Below, one piece after another: positions 5,969 through 42,972 of a DNA stretch of 49,902 bases. Position numbers and translations under genes: made by a program. The notes under the pieces are model-generated. The model searched no databases. It was not told where the DNA came from and was given only the letters and a program-made list of their open reading frames with translations. The stretch lies in the sequence record AY308796.1; one strand, written 5' to 3'. Numbering within the stretch: position 1 is the stretch's first letter; each line of letters starts with the position of its first letter. The DNA is from Escherichia phage Tls.

Positions 5969-6481
5969 ATGATTGCTAAAAATAACCTTCACAACCTTTT
6001 AACTAGTGGTAATGATTATCAGGTACTGAATAGCACAAAAGACCGTTATTTTATAGAATGTGATAATGGTGATCGCATGTGGTTGCGTAAGGATTTTTTC
6101 GAAAGCGAACACCTAAGCAATGCAAAGCGGATCGCAGATGAAGCAAGCGCATTAGCAGAGCGTGAACGAATTCGCGATATAGTAGCGGAGCAGGTTAGAA
6201 ATTCTTGCTTGCCTGGTGGCGATATCTTCAAATCAATGCGCGGTGAAATGACGGTTGGAATTCAAGATCGCGTAATTGAAAAATCAGTTGATTATGTAAT
6301 TGAGAATGCGAAATTCAATGCGTTGATTGACTCAGAGCATAACGAATACGTCAAAGTATTAGAGCAACTGCGTGAAGTGCTGCGAGTGCCGGAAGGTGAA
6401 AATATTGTGACTCATGCAAAGGTTGTAAGAGCGTTGGCTGATGCTTTGCTTGACGTTTACCCAGGAATGAAGTGCAAATAG
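5969..6481 (+). CDS. hypothetical protein (170 aa)
   Basis: In-frame ATG with SD aaggag; stop TAG inside next motif. Confidence 0.55.
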   Translation: MIAKNNLHNLLTSGNDYQVLNSTKDRYFIECDNGDRMWLRKDFFESEHLSNAKRIADEASALAERERIRDIVAEQVRNSCLPGGDIFKSMRGEMTVGIQDRVIEKSVDYVIENAKFNALIDSEHNEYVKVLEQLREVLRVPEGENIVTHAKVVRALADALLDVYPGMKCK

Positions 6482-15020: not shown

Positions 15021-15043
15021 AACGTTTAACAAAAAATGCTATA
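15021..15043 (-). promoter_or_regulatory. degenerate reverse-oriented copy of the 22-nt motif inside the late region
   Basis: Plus strand cgtttaacaaaaaatgctatatt resembles the reverse complement of AAATAGCACTTTTTGTTAAAAC; no clear -10. Confidence 0.3.
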
Positions 15044-24929: not shown

Positions 24930-27900
24930 ATGATCAAAAATATGATAACTGGCAGTAAGGGCGGTTCTTCAAAGCCTCATACACCTGTTGAAATGGAAGA
25001 TAACCTAATTTCAATCAACAGGATCAGAATTCTTTTAGCCGTTTCTGATGGTGAAGTTGATCCAAACTTTTCATTGAAAGATTTATATTTTGATGACGTT
25101 CCGGTTATGAATCAGGATGGTTCACTAAACTTTCAGAATGTTAAGGCAGAATTCAGACCAGGGACGCAAACGCAGGATTATATTCAGGGCTTTACTGATA
25201 CAGCCAGCGAAGTTACTGTTGCTCGCGATCTGACAGCCGCAACGCCTTATATTATTTCTGTTACCAATAAAAACCTTTCTGCGATCCGTATTAAAATTTT
25301 AATGCCTCGCGGGGTTACTCAGGAAGATAACGGAGATCTAACAGGTGTTCGCGTTGAATATGCTGTTGATATGGCTGTTGATGGTGCTGAATATAAAGAG
25401 GTTTTGCATGATGTAATTGAAGGTAAAACAATGAGCGGTTACGACAGAAGCCGCAGAATTGATTTACCTGCTTTTAATGAGCGTGTTTTATTGCGCGTCC
25501 GTCGCCTGACAGATAGCACGTCAGCAAGGGTAACGGATCTGATTAAAATGCAAAGCTATGCGGAAGTTGTAGACGCTAAATTTCGTTACCCACTGACTGG
25601 TTTAGTCTACGTTGAATTTGATAGCGAATTATTCCCTAATGCGTTACCGAATATCAGCATTAAAAAGAAATGGAACATCATAAATGTTACGTCGAATTAC
25701 GATCCGATTAGCCGCACCTATTCAGGGGCATGGGATGGAACCTGGAAAAAAGCCTGGTCTAATAATCCGGCTTTTGTACTGTATGATTTAATTACCAATC
25801 AGCGTTACGGACTCGATCAAAGAGAGTTAGGCATCGCGCTTGATAAATGGAGCATTTACGAATGTGCGCAGTATTGCGATCAGATGGTTCCAGACGGTAA
25901 AGGCGGAACAGAGCCGCGATATCTTTGCGACGTTGTGATCCAGAGCCAAGTAGAAGCGTATCAGCTTGTGCGTGATATTTGTTCAATCTTCCGTGGCATG
26001 AGCTTTTGGAATGGTGAGAGCCTTTCAATCGTGATCGATAAGCCTCGCGATGCGTCATACATCTTTACTAATGACAACGTGGTTAACGGTGAATTCACTT
26101 ACACGTTTGCCAGCGAAAAAAGCATGTACACGCAATGCAACGTGACTTTCGACGACGAACAAAACATGTATCAACAGGATGTTGAGGGAGTTTTCGAAAC
26201 GGAGGCGGCGTTACGCTTTGGCTATAACAGCACGTCAATTACTGCGATTGGATGCACACGACGCAGCGAAGCCAACCGCCGTGGACGCTGGATTTTAAAA
26301 ACCAACGTCAAGAGCACAACGGTAAACTTTGCTACAGGTCTGGAAGGTATGATCCCAACCGTAGGAGATGTGATTGTTGTATCTGATAACTTTTGGTCAA
26401 GTGCTCTAACGCTGAATCTATCAGGTCGCTTGATGGAGGTTAGCGGGTTGCAGGTGTTCACGCCGTTTAAGGTAGACGCAAGAGCAGGTGATCGCATTCT
26501 GGTAAATAAGCCGGATGGTAAGCCAGTTGGTCGAACCATTGCGCGTGTGAGTGATGACGGTAAAACGCTAACGCTAAACACGACATTTGGTTTTGACGTT
26601 CAGCCGGATACCATTTTTGCAATTGAGCGAACCGATATTGCACAGCAACGATATGTTGTAACCGGAATCACTAAGGGTGACGGTGATGAAGAATTTACCT
26701 ACAACATAACGGCTGTTGAATACGATCCGAACAAATACGATGAAATTGATTATGGCGTAAACATTGATGACCGTCCGACTTCAATCGTGCAGCCTGACAT
26801 TTTGCCAGCACCGCAAAACGTCAAGATCGAATCTTATTCGCGAGTTGTCCAAGGCGCGAGCGTGGAAACAATGCATGTTTCATGGGATAAGGTTGAATAT
26901 GCAAGCCTTTATGAAATGCAGTGGAGAAAAGACAATGGCAACTGGAACAACACGCCGCGCACAGCCAACAAGGAAACGGAAGTTGAAGGAATTTATGCTG
27001 GTAACTATCACGTAAGGGTTAGATCTGTTGCAGCGAATGGTTCAGCGTCTGGATGGTCTGCAATCGTAAGTGCAGGATTAACCGGAAAAGTTGGAGAGCC
27101 GGAAAAGCCAATTAACCTTACAGCGTCTGACAATGAAGTTTTCGGAATTCGCGTAAAATGGGGTATGCCAGAAGGAAGCGGAGACACGGCCTATATAGAG
27201 TTGCATCAAGCGCCAAACGGTTCTGATGGTCATCCTATTGTTGATGAAGCAACGCTCTTAACGCTGATACCGTTCCCGCAATATGAGTATTGGCATTCAA
27301 TACTGCCAGCGGGTCATGTTGTCTGGTACAAGGCAAGGGCAGTTGACAAAATCGGTAACGTTTCTGATTGGACTGATTTTGTGCGCGGCATGGCTTCCGA
27401 CGATACGAGCATTATCACGGATCATATTAAGGTCGATATTGAAAATTCTGATGGCTATAAGTGGTTGCAGGAAAACGCAATAAAGACCAATGATAAGATC
27501 CACAGCACAGCGGAATCAGTGATTGAAAACGCATTAGCTAATGATAAAGATGTTCGACGTATGCGAGTTGAAAACGGAAAGCGTAAAGCGGAGTTCTTGC
27601 AATCGCTGAAACTCATTGCAGACGAAACAGAAGCCAGGGTAACACAGGTCACTCAAATGAGTGCGCAATTTGACGAGAAATTAACGGCTCAAAATAGCGA
27701 GTTGAGAGAGGTAATTGCTAACAGCACTGAAACCATTAGCCAAAGGATTAATCAGCTTACAGCTACGTTTGAGAGTGAAATTGATGGGGTTAAGCAGGAT
27801 ATCAAAGCACAGATAACTGATGTTAACCAGGCAATCACTAATGAAGCGGAAGCGCGAGCGTCAGCGGATAGGGCGTTATCAACTCAAATTGGAGATACCC

Positions 27901-28706
27901 AATCAGCAGTGAATCAGAAACTTGATTCTTGGGTTAATGCCGATAGCGTTGGTGCGATGTACGGCGTTAAGTTGGGGATCAGGTATAACGGGCAGGAATA
28001 TAGCGCAGGTATGGCGCTTTCTCTTGTCGCTGATGGTGGCGGAGTTAAATCACAATTCCTGTTTGATGCAGGACGATTCGCGATCATCAACAATGCTCAA
28101 AGCGGAGCCTTTACATTGCCGTTTGTTGTTGAAAATAATCAGGTGTTTATCAATAGTTTGCTTGTTAAAAATGGTTCTATCGGTAATGCACAGATTGCTA
28201 ACTTCATCAACTCTAACAACTGGCAGAGCGGGGTTGCAGGATGGGCTATTAACAAAGATGGTTACGCAGAATTTAACCAGATAACGGTAAGGGGTACTGT
28301 TTACGCAAACGCCGGTTCATTCACTGGTAACGTTTACGCTACTGATGGTTGGTTTAGGGGTACTGTTTACGCTGAAAAAATTGAGGGTGACGTTGCAAAG
28401 GCTGTTGTCCTTCCGTTTAACGGATCGGTTCACATTCCGGCGGTTAACTACAACAGACATCTTGTGATCCCTTATGTTGGTATTCACGGGTACACATATT
28501 CAGGTGGTACATGGGGCAGAGGTACTGTTTGGGTTGATTCAACATATGGCGGTCGCCTTGCTAACGTTCAGGCAACTGCAATGCATGGCGGATCAAGTGG
28601 TTATGTTCTGTTGCCAGCAGGTAACGCAACCACGCTTTCATATGGTGGAGATCTAAACCACGCAAACGCAGTACCGATCTTAACAGTTCTGCTATTCAAA
28701 GCATAA
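24930..28706 (+). CDS. central tail fibre / host specificity protein, lambda gpJ-like
   Basis: 1258 aa; N-terminus GSKGGSSKPHTPVEMEDNL resembles gpJ; FN3-like segment; position after gpI. Confidence 0.85.
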   Translation: MIKNMITGSKGGSSKPHTPVEMEDNLISINRIRILLAVSDGEVDPNFSLKDLYFDDVPVMNQDGSLNFQNVKAEFRPGTQTQDYIQGFTDTASEVTVARDLTAATPYIISVTNKNLSAIRIKILMPRGVTQEDNGDLTGVRVEYAVDMAVDGAEYKEVLHDVIEGKTMSGYDRSRRIDLPAFNERVLLRVRRLTDSTSARVTDLIKMQSYAEVVDAKFRYPLTGLVYVEFDSELFPNALPNISIKKKWNIINVTSNYDPISRTYSGAWDGTWKKAWSNNPAFVLYDLITNQRYGLDQRELGIALDKWSIYECAQYCDQMVPDGKGGTEPRYLCDVVIQSQVEAYQLVRDICSIFRGMSFWNGESLSIVIDKPRDASYIFTNDNVVNGEFTYTFASEKSMYTQCNVTFDDEQNMYQQDVEGVFETEAALRFGYNSTSITAIGCTRRSEANRRGRWILKTNVKSTTVNFATGLEGMIPTVGDVIVVSDNFWSSALTLNLSGRLMEVSGLQVFTPFKVDARAGDRILVNKPDGKPVGRTIARVSDDGKTLTLNTTFGFDVQPDTIFAIERTDIAQQRYVVTGITKGDGDEEFTYNITAVEYDPNKYDEIDYGVNIDDRPTSIVQPDILPAPQNVKIESYSRVVQGASVETMHVSWDKVEYASLYEMQWRKDNGNWNNTPRTANKETEVEGIYAGNYHVRVRSVAANGSASGWSAIVSAGLTGKVGEPEKPINLTASDNEVFGIRVKWGMPEGSGDTAYIELHQAPNGSDGHPIVDEATLLTLIPFPQYEYWHSILPAGHVVWYKARAVDKIGNVSDWTDFVRGMASDDTSIITDHIKVDIENSDGYKWLQENAIKTNDKIHSTAESVIENALANDKDVRRMRVENGKRKAEFLQSLKLIADETEARVTQVTQMSAQFDEKLTAQNSELREVIANSTETISQRINQLTATFESEIDGVKQDIKAQITDVNQAITNEAEARASADRALSTQIGDTQSAVNQKLDSWVNADSVGAMYGVKLGIRYNGQEYSAGMALSLVADGGGVKSQFLFDAGRFAIINNAQSGAFTLPFVVENNQVFINSLLVKNGSIGNAQIANFINSNNWQSGVAGWAINKDGYAEFNQITVRGTVYANAGSFTGNVYATDGWFRGTVYAEKIEGDVAKAVVLPFNGSVHIPAVNYNRHLVIPYVGIHGYTYSGGTWGRGTVWVDSTYGGRLANVQATAMHGGSSGYVLLPAGNATTLSYGGDLNHANAVPILTVLLFKA

Positions 28707-35223: not shown

Positions 35224-35832
35224 TTAGCAATCAGTGCTATCGACGGAAATCACAACGCGTTTCTTCTGATTGGCTTCCTTTGCTTTGCGCCGTTCTTCTT
35301 TCGCCTTTTCGCGTTCAGCTTTGCGCCGCGCTTTCTCCTTCTCGCGTTCTTCTGGACTCATAGACCGCAACGGATCGTAAGGCCGCACAAATCCTCTTGC
35401 TTCCGCTTCCTCTTTGGTTACAAATCGCATCAGCTTTCTGTTGCTGCAACGATTCTCTAATGGCTTGCCGTTATTATCAAATTTGATATCTGGACGGCAA
35501 TATGAAGCGCGGAAGCCGTTAAAACCTTTGCGTCGGTAATCTTTCTGGATCAGTTCAGCGCCTTTAGTTGAAATCATTCCGCGCTCTTTCCATCCCCATA
35601 CTGTTTTAAGGTTAACGCCAATTTCACGAGCCAGGGCAGCGCAACCGCCGTAAGCGTTGACAACTTCATCAAGCCGCGCTTTTAATCCTGCTCTTACTTC
35701 TTCCTTTAATACAAGATAACCGCTAACAGGTGCGCGACGTTTACGATCTTTACCACGTCTTACGCCGTTGTTACCATTGATTGTGCGTTTGTCGATTTCG
35801 CCAGTTGAGGAAGCAATTTTGATTTCGCTCAT
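35224..35832 (-). CDS. HTH DNA-binding protein (putative transcriptional regulator) with Lys/Glu/Arg-rich C-terminal tail
   Basis: Helix-turn-helix-like AALAREIGVNLKTVWGWKERG; divergent from helicase operon; SD aggtga. Confidence 0.55.
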   Translation of the reverse strand: MSEIKIASSTGEIDKRTINGNNGVRRGKDRKRRAPVSGYLVLKEEVRAGLKARLDEVVNAYGGCAALAREIGVNLKTVWGWKERGMISTKGAELIQKDYRRKGFNGFRASYCRPDIKFDNNGKPLENRCSNRKLMRFVTKEEAEARGFVRPYDPLRSMSPEEREKEKARRKAEREKAKEERRKAKEANQKKRVVISVDSTDC

Positions 35833-37895: not shown

Positions 37896-38303
37896 ATGGT
37901 TACTGATAAAGGTGATTATCTGGAGTATTACGACAAGTCAGATCCAGACGATAGAAAGGAGGAATCGCACCAGGTTGATTCTTATTCATGGCTAACATAT
38001 GAGTTTCCCATGTGGCTTGTTTGGCACACTAAAAACGAGGGGAAGAAAACCATAGGCACAGCCGTAAAGGATCAGCAAGCGGGTGTGAAGAAGGGAGTTA
38101 GCGACATTCTAATCCTGACTGGTTTTATTGGCTGCAAGTATTCATTTATAGCCATTGAGCTTAAACGCGCCAACAAGAAAGGCACGAAGGTAAGCGACGA
38201 ACAAAAGGAATTCTTGCGACGTGTCAGAGAGTGCGGAGGATTTGCCGCCGTATGCTATGGAGTAGAGCAAGTAAAATTGGCTATCGCAGACGCTACAAAA
38301 TAG
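37896..38303 (+). CDS. VRR-NUC domain nuclease
   Basis: Pattern DILILTG...IAIELKRANKKGTKVSDEQKEFLRRV...GGFAAVCYG typical of VRR-NUC (D..E.K core); stop TAG inside next motif. Confidence 0.6.
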   Translation: MVTDKGDYLEYYDKSDPDDRKEESHQVDSYSWLTYEFPMWLVWHTKNEGKKTIGTAVKDQQAGVKKGVSDILILTGFIGCKYSFIAIELKRANKKGTKVSDEQKEFLRRVRECGGFAAVCYGVEQVKLAIADATK

Positions 38304-38343
38304 CACTTTTTGTTAAAACAGGCGCAACGGAATGCGCCATAAT
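38298..38343 (+). promoter_or_regulatory. motif promoter: AAATAGCACTTTTTGTTAAAAC + 18 nt + CATAAT
   Basis: Motif 38298-38319; hairpin ggcgca/tgcgcc; -10 CATAAT 38338-38343. Confidence 0.55.
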
Positions 38344-38374
38344 GCACCCATCAGAACGAAACGGAGAATTAACC

Positions 38375-38653
38375 ATGAAAAAGATGTTATCAGTAGTTGC
38401 TTTATCACTTGCTCTTGTCGGTTGCATGGATAAACCCAAAACATATATTTGCGGAAATGAAGCGTTTGAGGTTACAAGCGACTATATGAAAGTTGTGCAA
38501 GGCAAAAGCACAGGCGTTGTAATGGATAATATCAGCAAAAATCAATATAAGTTGTTTACGCCAATTGGAACGGCTTTCTACACAGTTAATGAAAACACAA
38601 TTGATATTAAAGTTGGCGTTTATCAGAACACTCTAACTTGCGAGGTAAAATAA
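38375..38653 (+). CDS. small lipoprotein (92 aa); candidate superinfection-exclusion protein
   Basis: Signal peptide MKKMLSVVALSLALVGC with lipobox LVGC; SD ggagaa; ORF-track start 38231 is an extension. Confidence 0.6.
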   Translation: MKKMLSVVALSLALVGCMDKPKTYICGNEAFEVTSDYMKVVQGKSTGVVMDNISKNQYKLFTPIGTAFYTVNENTIDIKVGVYQNTLTCEVK

Positions 38654-38654
38654 A

Positions 38655-39395
38655 ATGGCTAAAGATATTCAGGACAAAACCACAATTGACACTTTCGCAC
38701 AGGAAATGGATTTTCATGAACTGCAACACGGCAGATATTCAGATATTGCGTTGCGTTCAGGTGGTCATTATCAGCCAGTTAGAGAAAACCCAATGTTCAA
38801 GGTTAGCGGCAACCGTTATGCAGGAAGTAAAACGCCGGACGTTGTGCGCGACTTGTGGGAAACTCCAGATGAAATTGTTGAATACCTTGCTGAACGTTAC
38901 GGCAAATATGATCTTGACGCAGCAGCAACGGAAGATAATAAAAAATGCGATAAATTTTACAGCAAAGAAACAAACTGCTTAAAGCGTTGGTGGGGTAGCA
39001 ATAAGCACGTTTGGTTAAATCCACCATACAGCAATCCAGATCCATTTATCAAAAAAGCAATTGAGCAGATGGAACACGGAAACCAGATTGATATTTTACT
39101 TCCGGCTGATAATTCAACTGCATGGTTTAGTGACGCACAAAAACACGCGGCAGAAATTATCTGGATTACTGGTGAAACCTGGAAGGATGAAGAAGGTCGC
39201 GAATATTCCCGAACTGGTCGAGTAGCGTTTATTTCTGGCATGACAGGTGAGCCAGTTAGCGGAAACAATAAAGGTAGTGTAATTTTTATCATGCGCCAAT
39301 TGGAAGAAGGTGAGCAACAGCAAACGCACTATGTGAAGATTAGCGACATTTGCCCTTCCGTAAAAAATAAACGAGCCAAAGCGCGGAGTATTTAA
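38655..39395 (+). CDS. dam: DNA N6-adenine methyltransferase (Dam-like)
   Basis: Catalytic motif WLNPPYS (motif IV D/NPPY); 246 aa. Confidence 0.75.
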   Translation: MAKDIQDKTTIDTFAQEMDFHELQHGRYSDIALRSGGHYQPVRENPMFKVSGNRYAGSKTPDVVRDLWETPDEIVEYLAERYGKYDLDAAATEDNKKCDKFYSKETNCLKRWWGSNKHVWLNPPYSNPDPFIKKAIEQMEHGNQIDILLPADNSTAWFSDAQKHAAEIIWITGETWKDEEGREYSRTGRVAFISGMTGEPVSGNNKGSVIFIMRQLEEGEQQQTHYVKISDICPSVKNKRAKARSI

Positions 39396-40639: not shown

Positions 40640-41755
40640 ATGACTGCTAAAAAAATTACGGATGAGCAATTGATTGCAGAGCGCGAAGCGGGTTTAAAGT
40701 TGCGAGAGATTGCTGAAAAGTACGGAATGAGCTTACGCCAGGTTGAGCACCGTCACAGCAAATTGGCTAAGCGTGGCGAAATCTCAACTATCGGATCACC
40801 TGGCTTTGCGGTAATTGGTGAATCGCAGCTTAAACGTGCTAATGGTGAGGTTGTAATTACTTGGACCAAAACGCATAAGGATAAAGAGCAATTAGAAGCA
40901 ATTATGCAAGCGGCTATGGATGCATTTTCGGAAGAAGTGCCGCGCATTAAGCCGCAACCGGAAAAAATTACTGATTACTCGCAAACGCTGGCGCTATATC
41001 CGATCTTTGATATTCACATTGGCGCAATGGCTCATAAGCATGAAAGCGGTGAGAATTACGACACGGCAACGGCGGAAAACGTCATGAATGAGTTTTTCGA
41101 TTATGCAGTTGATAAAGCGCCCAATAGCGAAAAGGCTGTATTGCTGATTGGTGGTGATATGATTCACAGTGACGGTCTGGAGGCTGTAACACCTGCAAGC
41201 GGTCACGTTTTGGATCAAGATAGCCGTTACGCAAAACTTGTTTATGTTGCTATCCGCGCCACGCGTCGAGCAGTAAGCAGAATGCTGGAAAAACATAAAG
41301 AGGTTGAATTGCAGATCATTGAAGGTAATCACGACCAATCAGGAATGATCTGGCTGCGTGCTGCAATGGCGGCGGCGTATGAGAATGAGCCACGCGTAAA
41401 GGTTGATGTTTCTCCGCGTGTCGTGCATCACACGCAATATGGAAAAACGTTCCTGGCTTATCATCATGGTCACACTGTACGCAAGCCAGAAACGCTTTTA
41501 ATGATGTGTGCAGCGGATTGGCGGGAAGATTTCGGAAACTCCAATTCAATGTATGCGCATGTAGGGCATTGGCATCACCAGACTGTTACAGAAACGAGCC
41601 TTGGCATTGTTGAGGTGCATAGCACTATGGCGGCTAAAGATGCTTATGCCGCGCGTGGCGGTTGGCGTTCACGCCGTCGAGCGGCGGTAATTATCTATGA
41701 TAAGGAATATGGCGAGATAGGGCGCTTTATGTTCTACCCTGAAATGATTGCATAA
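40640..41755 (+). CDS. HTH-domain plus calcineurin-like metallophosphoesterase fusion protein
   Basis: N-terminal HTH-like LKLREIAEKYGMSLRQV; phosphoesterase motifs DIHIG, GGDMIHSD, EGNHDQ, GHWHH. Confidence 0.6.
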   Translation: MTAKKITDEQLIAEREAGLKLREIAEKYGMSLRQVEHRHSKLAKRGEISTIGSPGFAVIGESQLKRANGEVVITWTKTHKDKEQLEAIMQAAMDAFSEEVPRIKPQPEKITDYSQTLALYPIFDIHIGAMAHKHESGENYDTATAENVMNEFFDYAVDKAPNSEKAVLLIGGDMIHSDGLEAVTPASGHVLDQDSRYAKLVYVAIRATRRAVSRMLEKHKEVELQIIEGNHDQSGMIWLRAAMAAAYENEPRVKVDVSPRVVHHTQYGKTFLAYHHGHTVRKPETLLMMCAADWREDFGNSNSMYAHVGHWHHQTVTETSLGIVEVHSTMAAKDAYAARGGWRSRRRAAVIIYDKEYGEIGRFMFYPEMIA

Positions 41756-42092: not shown

Positions 42093-42586
42093 TGACAATC
42101 AAGAAAGGTATAGCCGCCACCGTCACAGGGGCGGCTTTAATGTTGGCATCGCCTTTGATTGAAGAAATTGAAGGCGTAAAGTATAAGCCTTACAAGGATA
42201 TTGCTGGTATCTGGACTGTATGCCACGGCATCACAGGAAATGATGTGATTCTTGGAAAGGAATATACCAGGCGAGAGTGTGACGCGCTATTAGCAAAGCA
42301 TATGAAAGTAGCGGCTGACGCTGTTGATAAAGCTGTTAAGGTTGATATTCCTATTTCTATGCGAGCGGCTTTGTACTCATTCACATTCAACGCCGGAACA
42401 GGGGCATTCAGGAAATCAACCATGTTGAAGAAGATCAATAATGGTGATCTGTATGGTGGTTGTGGCGAGCTTTGGAACTGGACATATTACCGGAACCCGA
42501 AAACGGGCAAAAAGGAAAAATCAAAGGGATTGAAGAATCGCCGCGCTGTTGAATATAAATATTGTGTAATGGATCTGAATAAATGA
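42092..42586 (+). CDS. SAR endolysin (T4-type lysozyme, GH24-like)
   Basis: N-terminal signal-anchor-release segment [18 protein letters not shown]; catalytic E/D/T pattern [21 protein letters not shown]. Confidence 0.75.
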
Positions 42587-42972
42587 AAAGAAAATTACTG
42601 GCTATTATGATGTGCATTGCTCTTTCTGGTTGTTCAGCTTCAAGCGTGTTACCTGGTCTGATTGGTAGCAAGCCTGATATAACGGCACAGGCTGGAGCGG
42701 AGAATGTGAAACAGACTGTTGGTGTAACCGCAAAGCAGGATACATCAAGCAAGCAGGAAACCACATTCAAAGAATCGGAAGTTGGTCAAGTTGACACATC
42801 CAATAAAAAGCAGGTGAGTACCTCAAGCATCAAGGCTGATAACATTACGGCGGAAAGAATAGAAATTCGCAATAATGACGGCCTTAACGTTCCGGCAATC
42901 GCAATGGGTATATTGATGTTCATTGCTGGTATGCTGGCAGGTTGGACGCTAAAACGTAATAAGGCGGCATAA
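42583..42972 (+). CDS. unimolecular spanin (u-spanin)
   Basis: N-terminal lipoprotein signal with lipobox LSGC and C-terminal TM anchor [17 protein letters not shown]; overlaps endolysin stop. Confidence 0.65.

Follow-up and report, generated by a model that had tools for sequence, protein, structure and literature searches.

A small predicted outer-membrane lipoprotein encoded beside dam in phage TLS: a Cor/Llp-type assignment is not supported and a periplasmic binding role is possible

Two groups of small proteins serve here as the closest described counterparts of a phage-encoded lipoprotein. Llp of T5 and Cor of T1, phi80 and N15 are superinfection-exclusion lipoproteins of siphophages. 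One short helix and four strands, the latter arranged as two sheets, make up Llp, which has a C11-C58 disulfide; models of Cor look alike (bioRxiv 10.64898/2026.03.26.714494). Genes of the Cor/Llp type occupy the receptor-binding locus, beside gpJ or, in T5, beside pb5 (PMC8594841). The other group is the MliC/PliC family, whose lysozyme-binding motif, SGxxY, inserts into the lysozyme active site (PMC8334348). PhiA, a flattened eight-stranded barrel with one disulfide (Cys76-Cys154), has the typical MliC/PliC fold; it lacks SGxxY and gave no inhibition in vitro, and genetic data led to the proposal that it restrains a T4-lysozyme-like muramidase (PMC8334348).

Phage TLS belongs to the genus Tlsvirus (Drexlerviridae, Tempevirinae), and its nearest annotated records are LL5, DanielBernoulli and U136B. 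TLS, LL5 and DanielBernoulli are TolC-dependent (BASEL paper, PMC8594841), as is U136B according to the U136B papers, and TolC phages such as TLS and U136B are investigated as a means of driving bacteria away from antibiotic efflux. The TolC phages are without the usual gpJ-adjacent RBP/exclusion locus (PMC8594841). A re-annotation of TLS published in 2024 mentions neither the lipoprotein nor superinfection exclusion (PMC11447400). A first-pass annotation of the TLS genome (AY308796.1; the window referred to here is the whole stretch of 49,902 nucleotides) had singled out a small lipoprotein gene as a candidate exclusion factor of the Cor/Llp kind, and we followed this up computationally.

The gene lies on the plus strand at 38375-38653 (ATG at 38375, TAA at 38651-38653), comprises 92 codons plus the stop and corresponds to PHROG 7420. 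A Shine-Dalgarno sequence, GGAG (38363-38366, plus strand), is found 8 nt 5′ of the ATG, and an ACGGAG Shine-Dalgarno is kept in most aligned lineages. The product had been described at the outset as a 92-aa protein adjoining Dam. Indeed, a gene for a Dam-type N6-adenine methyltransferase (38655-39395, plus strand; Pfam PF05869, E 2.3e-62) starts 1 nt past the lipoprotein TAA, and the gene order was identical in every locus examined. The two genes are probably co-transcribed. A functional partnership between the lipoprotein and Dam was considered and rejected, as only adjacency and probable co-transcription speak for one. The ORF itself is a genuine gene, judging by its full-length match to phrog_7420 (residues 1-92, E 1.6e-53; a PHROG family of unassigned function), the 216 phage records with a homologue, the invariance of G16, C17, C26 and C89, and dN/dS values of 0.08-0.21.

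Some existing gene calls hide the signal peptide of this protein. The UniProt entry A5PJ18 ('Uncharacterized protein [Escherichia phage Tls]'), found by structure search, is 100% identical; this original TLS entry is 140 aa long and begins at a GTG (38231), a start inside VRR-NUC that buries the signal peptide. Some metagenomic gene calls (133 aa) likewise begin inside VRR-NUC and mask it. The LL5 record carries a doubtful antisense ORF of 44 aa at 38549-38683 (minus strand) that spans the promoter region.

The protein begins with MKKMLSVVALSLALVGC, which contains two Lys residues, a 10-residue hydrophobic core and the lipobox L14-V15-G16-C17 (38414-38425), and continues as MDKPKTYICGNEAFEV...TLTCEVK. 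The predicted signal peptide (residues 1-16) and lipid-modified Cys17 together span 38375-38425 on the plus strand. Across 32 close and 14 divergent sequences G16 and C17 never vary and, with the two Lys and the hydrophobic core, they confirm the classic lipoprotein signal peptide with lipobox LVGC reported by the first-pass annotation. A six-frame scan of TLS gave 1,468 start-stop combinations (minimum 35 aa), of which a relaxed lipoprotein filter retained three; among these, 38375-38653 alone carried a signal peptide typical of lipoproteins. The filter overlooked the u-spanin (42583-42972), the sole other lipoprotein in TLS, which has an LSGC lipobox and a C-terminal transmembrane helix and is located after the holin and endolysin. 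By its predicted signals, then, the 38375-38653 product is the only exported non-spanin lipoprotein of the TLS genome. A spanin identity for it was rejected, because it has no transmembrane helix and its gene precedes the holin, the first gene of the lysis cassette, by 3.2 kb.

Under the Lol '+2 rule', a residue other than Asp at position +2 leads to outer-membrane sorting, Asp being the inner-membrane retention signal. The +2 residue of the TLS allele is Met, not Asp, and outer-membrane sorting is therefore expected. The residue is of the outer-membrane type in all alleles except the P-K7R type. It should be noted that this allele type (C-D-N; 41029-41295 in Klebsiella phage P-K7R and 6001-6264 in loci L039-L044 of our collection) has Asp at +2, a Lol-avoidance signal, and is predicted from this residue to be retained in the inner membrane. 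If function survives the change of membrane, the target would more likely be soluble or envelope-spanning than the face of an outer-membrane receptor.

All 216 phage records with a full-length homologue were at least 60% identical to the TLS protein by tblastn, with hosts that included Klebsiella (168), Salmonella (16), Citrobacter (14) and Escherichia (13). A search of 5.8 billion proteins returned only 34 clusters, nearly all of ~92 aa, and the long contigs were ~50 kb phage contigs. An exhaustive profile search of 1.84 billion representatives returned only 11 proteins (E ≤0.001); the nine that were retrieved (88-115 aa) all share the lipoprotein architecture, and one match was a 3231-aa protein with 13 matched stretches. 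The same search yielded a handful of diverged members, 26-51% identical to the TLS protein, which retain the lipobox, a Y-x-C-G motif, Y58 and a cysteine near the C-terminus, and it yielded no cellular homologue with a transferable function. The mature domains of divergent alleles match phrog_7420 at E 1.3e-5 to 1.3e-25, so that all tested types belong to this family, although membership names the TLS gene without explaining its function. No relatives of alleles P0036 and P0037 were found in IMG/VR. With 14 members, Pfam gave lipid-attachment motifs only at E ≤5, NCBIfam gave nothing beyond such motifs and one weak NF047972 match, and a PDB-sequence profile search gave nothing relevant.

In every locus inspected (Tlsvirus, Henuseptimavirus, Webervirus, Nouzillyvirus and unclassified Tempevirinae) the gene sits between helicase/VRR-NUC and dam. 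T1 is empty at the equivalent position, and its cor adjoins the gpJ cassette instead. Pairwise dN/dS against orthologues with dS of 0.15-1.6 was 0.08-0.21, and by this measure the gene is under purifying selection. A metagenomic Webervirus orthologue (L038, 8001-8276) has an in-frame stop at codon 32, which is either a sequencing error or a sign of dispensability. A further feature concerns the C-terminus: the TLS protein ends in Lys92 (codon 38648-38650), and in a comparison that took in P0035-P0041, a C-terminal Lys is present in six of eight diverged allele types (p ~8e-4 vs. an 18.6% background), with tails of 3-6 residues past the last Cys. An Lpp-like peptidoglycan tether via this Lys was rejected, since the stapled termini adjoin the membrane in the model described below.

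Upstream of the gene we found what is probably its own promoter. One copy of the 21-nt TLS direct repeat, aaATAGCACnnnTTGnTAAAA, lies at 38298-38318 (plus strand), where it contains the VRR-NUC stop (TAG, 38301-38303) and a -35-like TTGTTA (38310-38315). A -10-like hexamer, CATAAT (38338-38343, plus strand), starts exactly 22 nt after TTGTTA, in a position kept in orthologous loci, and the spacer between repeat and hexamer is occupied by a hairpin (GGCGCA-ACGGAA-TGCGCC, 38321-38338, plus strand; -11 kcal/mol) whose arms show compensatory changes in related phages (GCCGGA/TCCGGC, CCCGGC/GCCGGG and GCCGCA/TGCGGC). The repeat family has been described in TLS, with its function listed as an open question (PMC11447400). 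We counted 24 matches with up to two mismatches in the genome vs. 4.2 expected. Exact copies start at 1525, 1931, 2559, 4063, 5138, 6480, 30224, 35845, 38302 and 39626 on the plus strand and at 35238, 45151, 45828, 47241 and 48193 on the minus strand, and three near-exact variants are found at 15040, 48917 and 49780 (minus strand). A TATAAT-like hexamer, often with an upstream TG (TGn), follows the repeat's TTGYTA by 21-22 nt in 17 of 18 intergenic copies. From this arrangement the repeat resembles the 5′ half of a phage-specific promoter whose spacing is non-canonical, and not a 'stoperator'; with the repeat, the hexamer at 38338-38343 is a probable promoter for the lipoprotein-Dam unit. The spacer between repeat and hexamer often forms a hairpin, and in early-region copies the loop encloses the -10-like element.

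The repeat upstream of the lipoprotein gene was conserved in all lineages examined, and the repeat, hairpin, -10-like hexamer and Shine-Dalgarno persist even where the lipoproteins are only 26% identical. Because of this conservation, the lipoprotein-dam pair looks like a transcription unit of its own. In T1, the genes at both genome ends form the early regions. The repeat element also precedes genes clustered at both ends of the TLS genome and, by analogy, we infer that the lipoprotein and dam would be expressed early. A (T)5-to-(T)4 deletion in the lipoprotein-upstream repeat was present in 100% of reads from one population in a U136B evolution study (PMC10304864); the T5 run occupies 38307-38311 in TLS, equivalent to U136B 38,211-38,215. 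The deletion may have a regulatory effect, may have hitch-hiked or may be an artefact of the homopolymer.

An AlphaFold2 model built on the family alignment (mean pLDDT 85.9, ~95 for residues 21-92) predicts an eight-stranded antiparallel beta-barrel for residues 22-88 (38438-38641, plus strand), with Cys26 (38450-38452) and Cys89 (38639-38641) flanking the first and last strands. Both cysteines are invariant in the 32 close and 14 divergent sequences and, in the model, a Cys26-Cys89 disulfide probably joins these two strands. The modelled tether between lipid anchor and barrel is only ~4 residues long. Foldseek gave no match at E ≤0.001 in the PDB and nothing besides the protein's own family in BFVD; the best PDB match was PhiA (E 0.13, TM ~0.5). 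SGxxY is absent from the 32 close and 14 divergent sequences, in which the nearest conserved string is G65-x-A67-x-Y69. The TLS family also fails to match the Pfam MliC family (PF09864), and no sequence relationship was detectable. The resemblance to MliC/PliC/PhiA, with scores that go no further than the level of the fold, is one of predicted fold only.

We then asked how the protein compares with Cor and Llp. The full-length TLS protein does have a weak match to the Cor family phrog_1119 (E 3.6e-4), covering residues 1-43. Upon removal of the signal peptide, however, none of five mature allele types matched phrog_1119 at E ≤1 and all matched only phrog_7420, whereas mature T1 Cor, our positive control, matched phrog_1119 at E 3.1e-19. 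The weak match, which is lost in the mature domains, thus comes from the signal peptide. Consistent with this, alignment of Cor with the TLS family by hhalign was confined to the signal peptide and tblastn with T1 Cor matched residues 1-22 only. NF047972 (Cor, NCBIfam) matched one of the 14 members, at E 0.089, which is unlikely to reach the model cutoff. The predicted eight-stranded barrel also differs from the Llp/Cor fold (PDB 7QJF and 8A60), and neither Llp nor Cor ranked at the top when the TLS model was matched to the PDB and BFVD. The view that the product is of the same kind as Cor and Llp did not survive these comparisons, its mature domains matching only phrog_7420 and no Cor profile.

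The position of the gene and its distribution among phages with different receptors point the same way. Within the replication module, the gene is separated from the upstream gpJ (24930-28706) by ~9.7 kb. The lipoprotein is 96-100% identical to that of TLS in the other TolC phages, 86% identical in IsaakIselin, which uses YncD (13 differences, largely conservative), and 66% identical in Klebsiella phage GH-K3, which has OmpC as a secondary receptor. On these comparisons the lipoprotein does not track the terminal receptor of the phage (TolC, YncD or OmpC); the periplasmic faces of the three are unrelated, so a single barrel cannot plausibly plug them all. In IsaakIselin a gpJ-adjacent cassette that encodes a signal-peptide protein, bas10_0024, is retained as well. 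The genes directly 3′ of gpJ in IsaakIselin (bas10_0024; L005, 5099-5431) and in K50PH164C1 (LOCUS23; L045, 21093-21359) encode proteins whose signal peptides are of the ordinary cleavable kind and have no lipobox, and this suggests that some receptor-linked exclusion candidates of Drexlerviridae are soluble periplasmic proteins and not lipoproteins. Downstream of gpJ in TLS there was no Cor homologue, no exported ORF and no alternative exclusion gene. With no exclusion locus at gpJ, a lipoprotein-type exclusion factor of TLS, if there is one, can only be the 38375-38653 product. Homology to Cor/Llp, or a shared mechanism, is not supported by these sequence comparisons, and a broader, receptor-independent exclusion is possible. 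What stands of the exclusion-factor idea is the small lipoprotein of outer-membrane type; the Cor/Llp-like mechanism fell on the sequence, fold, locus and receptor tests.

Labels of orthologues in public records are inconsistent, being either 'Cor superinfection exclusion protein' or 'putative adhesin' (OY979435.1 (K54lambda2), OL539465.1 and OL539462.1). The Cor label appears to stem from a profile match driven by the signal peptide. The negative Cor result is of practical value, since the 'Cor' label, carried by at least one public genome, and the 'putative adhesin' label are both unsupported. A separate labelling matter is OR786094.1, 'Streptococcus phage MBBL140', which shares 95.8% identity with TLS across 86% of the right 20 kb; it is a Tlsvirus genome, and the Gram-positive host label is almost certainly wrong.

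The lipoprotein diverges on a schedule of its own compared with the genes around it. In Webervirus loci, the helicase, VRR-NUC, Dam and exonuclease are 54-62% identical to those of TLS vs. 64-80% for the lipoprotein, while in Citrobacter phage Sazh identity reaches 93-99% for the flanks and only 85% for the lipoprotein. Other Tempevirinae have a backbone as close to TLS as that of IsaakIselin (helicase 68%, Dam 76%, exonuclease 80%, endolysin 71%); despite this, their lipoprotein is 40% (P-K7R type) or 26% (K50PH164C1 type) identical. To look for a partner, we compared 77 proteins of LL5, a near-identical relative of TLS, with six genomes, and the lipoprotein was by far the most discordant gene. 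It was the best-conserved protein between LL5 and the Klebsiella Webervirus RCIP0001 (80% vs. 33-71% for the other matched proteins), and among the least conserved between LL5 and P-K7R or K50PH164C1, where capsid proteins are 83-85% identical. No co-varying phage partner emerged from this whole-proteome comparison of 77 proteins and six genomes; a polynucleotide kinase and one small ORF lean weakly toward the lipoprotein's pattern, and no other gene does. The decoupling of allele type from backbone indicates that the slot holds interchangeable alleles that move horizontally; by these identities it acts as a cassette open to exchange, of which several deeply divergent allele types exist. Since no phage gene co-varies with it, an allele-specific phage protein, the endolysin included, is an unlikely partner.

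Several explanations could account for a gene with these properties. A chance ORF, or a decaying remnant without function, would fit its absence from T1, the orthologue with an in-frame stop and the want of any known domain; it is nevertheless hardly credible, given dN/dS values of 0.1-0.2, a lipobox and two cysteines that are invariant down to 26% identity, a conserved Shine-Dalgarno and promoter-like elements, a confident fold prediction and a presence in more than 200 phage genomes. The protein might instead act as Cor and Llp do, binding the periplasmic side of its own receptor, TolC, and blocking further TLS particles. The protein looks like a small, early lipoprotein of the outer membrane and has a cysteine towards each terminus, as do Llp (C11-C58) and Cor, its short tether would keep it close to the inner surface of that membrane, the place beside gpJ is vacant of exclusion genes in the TolC phages and of Cor or exported ORFs in TLS, and one public record even calls an orthologue 'Cor superinfection exclusion protein'. 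We consider this improbable all the same. The mature domain has no Cor similarity, fold and locus both differ, phages that depend on YncD or OmpC have copies at 86% and 66% identity, respectively, and one of them (IsaakIselin) keeps its own gpJ-adjacent cassette, and one allele type (P-K7R) is predicted to be in the inner membrane. Moreover, TolC has no plug domain, and the known allosteric mechanism of Llp on FhuA acts via the plug. A different role would be one in lysis: an inhibitor anchored in the outer membrane could mop up premature SAR endolysin of the T4-lysozyme type and so sharpen lysis timing, given that PhiA is proposed to restrain a T4-lysozyme-like muramidase and that the TLS endolysin is a SAR enzyme of the T4L type (PMC11447400). 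Yet T1, whose SAR endolysin is 61% identical, has no such lipoprotein gene, and the endolysin is 68-72% identical where the lipoprotein is 86, 40 or 26% identical, with no co-variation; in Webervirus the values are 61% for the endolysin vs. 66-80% for the lipoprotein. With SGxxY absent and the gene outside the lysis cassette, a regulator of the phage's own lysis is quite unlikely.

A host-directed envelope function unrelated to exclusion is harder to set aside, and we regard it as a genuine, if doubtful, possibility. Such a protein could bind a conserved outer-membrane machine or lipoprotein, alter the linkage between membrane and peptidoglycan through its conserved C-terminal Lys, limit the trapping of progeny by vesicles and debris, or counter an envelope-based host defence. 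When phages of E. coli are compared with those of Klebsiella, the lipoprotein is better conserved than flanking core genes, and this suggests a target conserved throughout the Enterobacteriaceae; the lack of a co-varying phage gene and the short membrane tether fit as well, as does the C-terminal Lys, kept in six of eight allele types despite varying tail length (p ~8e-4 vs. 18.6%). On the other hand, deeply diverged alleles on similar backbones are unexpected for one conserved host target, the termini are stapled at the membrane so that the Lys is unlikely to reach peptidoglycan, and Pfam, NCBIfam and PDB-sequence profile searches revealed no homology to any host-modulating protein. We tentatively favour another reading, which is possible without being probable: by analogy with proteins of similar fold, the lipoprotein may be a periplasmic binder or inhibitor of a non-receptor target, possibly one that excludes rivals after adsorption.

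The 92-aa prolipoprotein is strongly predicted to be exported by Sec, lipidated at Cys17 and sorted to the outer membrane, where its predicted disulfide-stapled eight-stranded barrel would be held within a few residues of the membrane. We propose that, tethered there, it could work in the periplasm as a binding or inhibitory module with a structure like that of MliC, PliC and PhiA. Neither the terminal receptor that the phage itself uses nor any allele-specific phage protein would be the target; the likeliest candidate would be a factor, either of the host or foreign, that is active in the periplasm or passes through it, for example a muralytic enzyme or a component by which a rival phage or a bacteriocin enters the cell. 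An infected cell would then be shielded once adsorption has taken place, along the lines of T4 Spackle and not of Cor/Llp. Taken further, the protein might be the founding member of a second, receptor-independent class of siphophage exclusion lipoproteins, MliC/PliC-fold barrels that neutralise some component of incoming competitors active in, or passing through, the periplasm and are traded as cassettes within Drexlerviridae. This extension is speculative and we think it rather unlikely; if true, the second class would explain how TolC phages without gpJ-linked Cor/Llp-type genes protect the infected cell. The family is widely conserved and horizontally exchanged, nothing unusual has been evidenced for it so far, and it is a reasonable experimental target. 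As the one exported non-lysis protein of TLS, and the most conserved vs. Webervirus RCIP0001, it would, once its function is defined, have a bearing on hundreds of therapeutic-candidate phages.

Set beside the described systems, the TLS protein shares features with each. In common with Llp and Cor, it is a small siphophage lipoprotein with a lipobox, a beta-rich mature domain (58-76 residues across the three) and a Cys near each end, and it faces the periplasm from the outer membrane, as predicted or shown; its mature chain is longer, with 76 residues vs. ~58-62 in Cor and Llp. With the MliC/PliC/PhiA/ACP family it would share a flattened eight-stranded barrel and a cysteine pair (C26/C89 in the model). 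MliC is also lipid-anchored, and a lipid anchor is predicted for the TLS protein too, although this protein is phage-encoded and its tether is much shorter. Spackle (Sp) of T4 is an exclusion protein of the periplasm, where it inhibits the tail lysozyme of T-even phages that are entering the cell. It is helical and not a lipoprotein, and similarity to the TLS protein was neither found nor expected, so that the likeness would be a functional analogy, offered as a hypothesis only. Both are small exported proteins of virulent phages and, like Spackle, the TLS lipoprotein could act after adsorption whatever the receptor.
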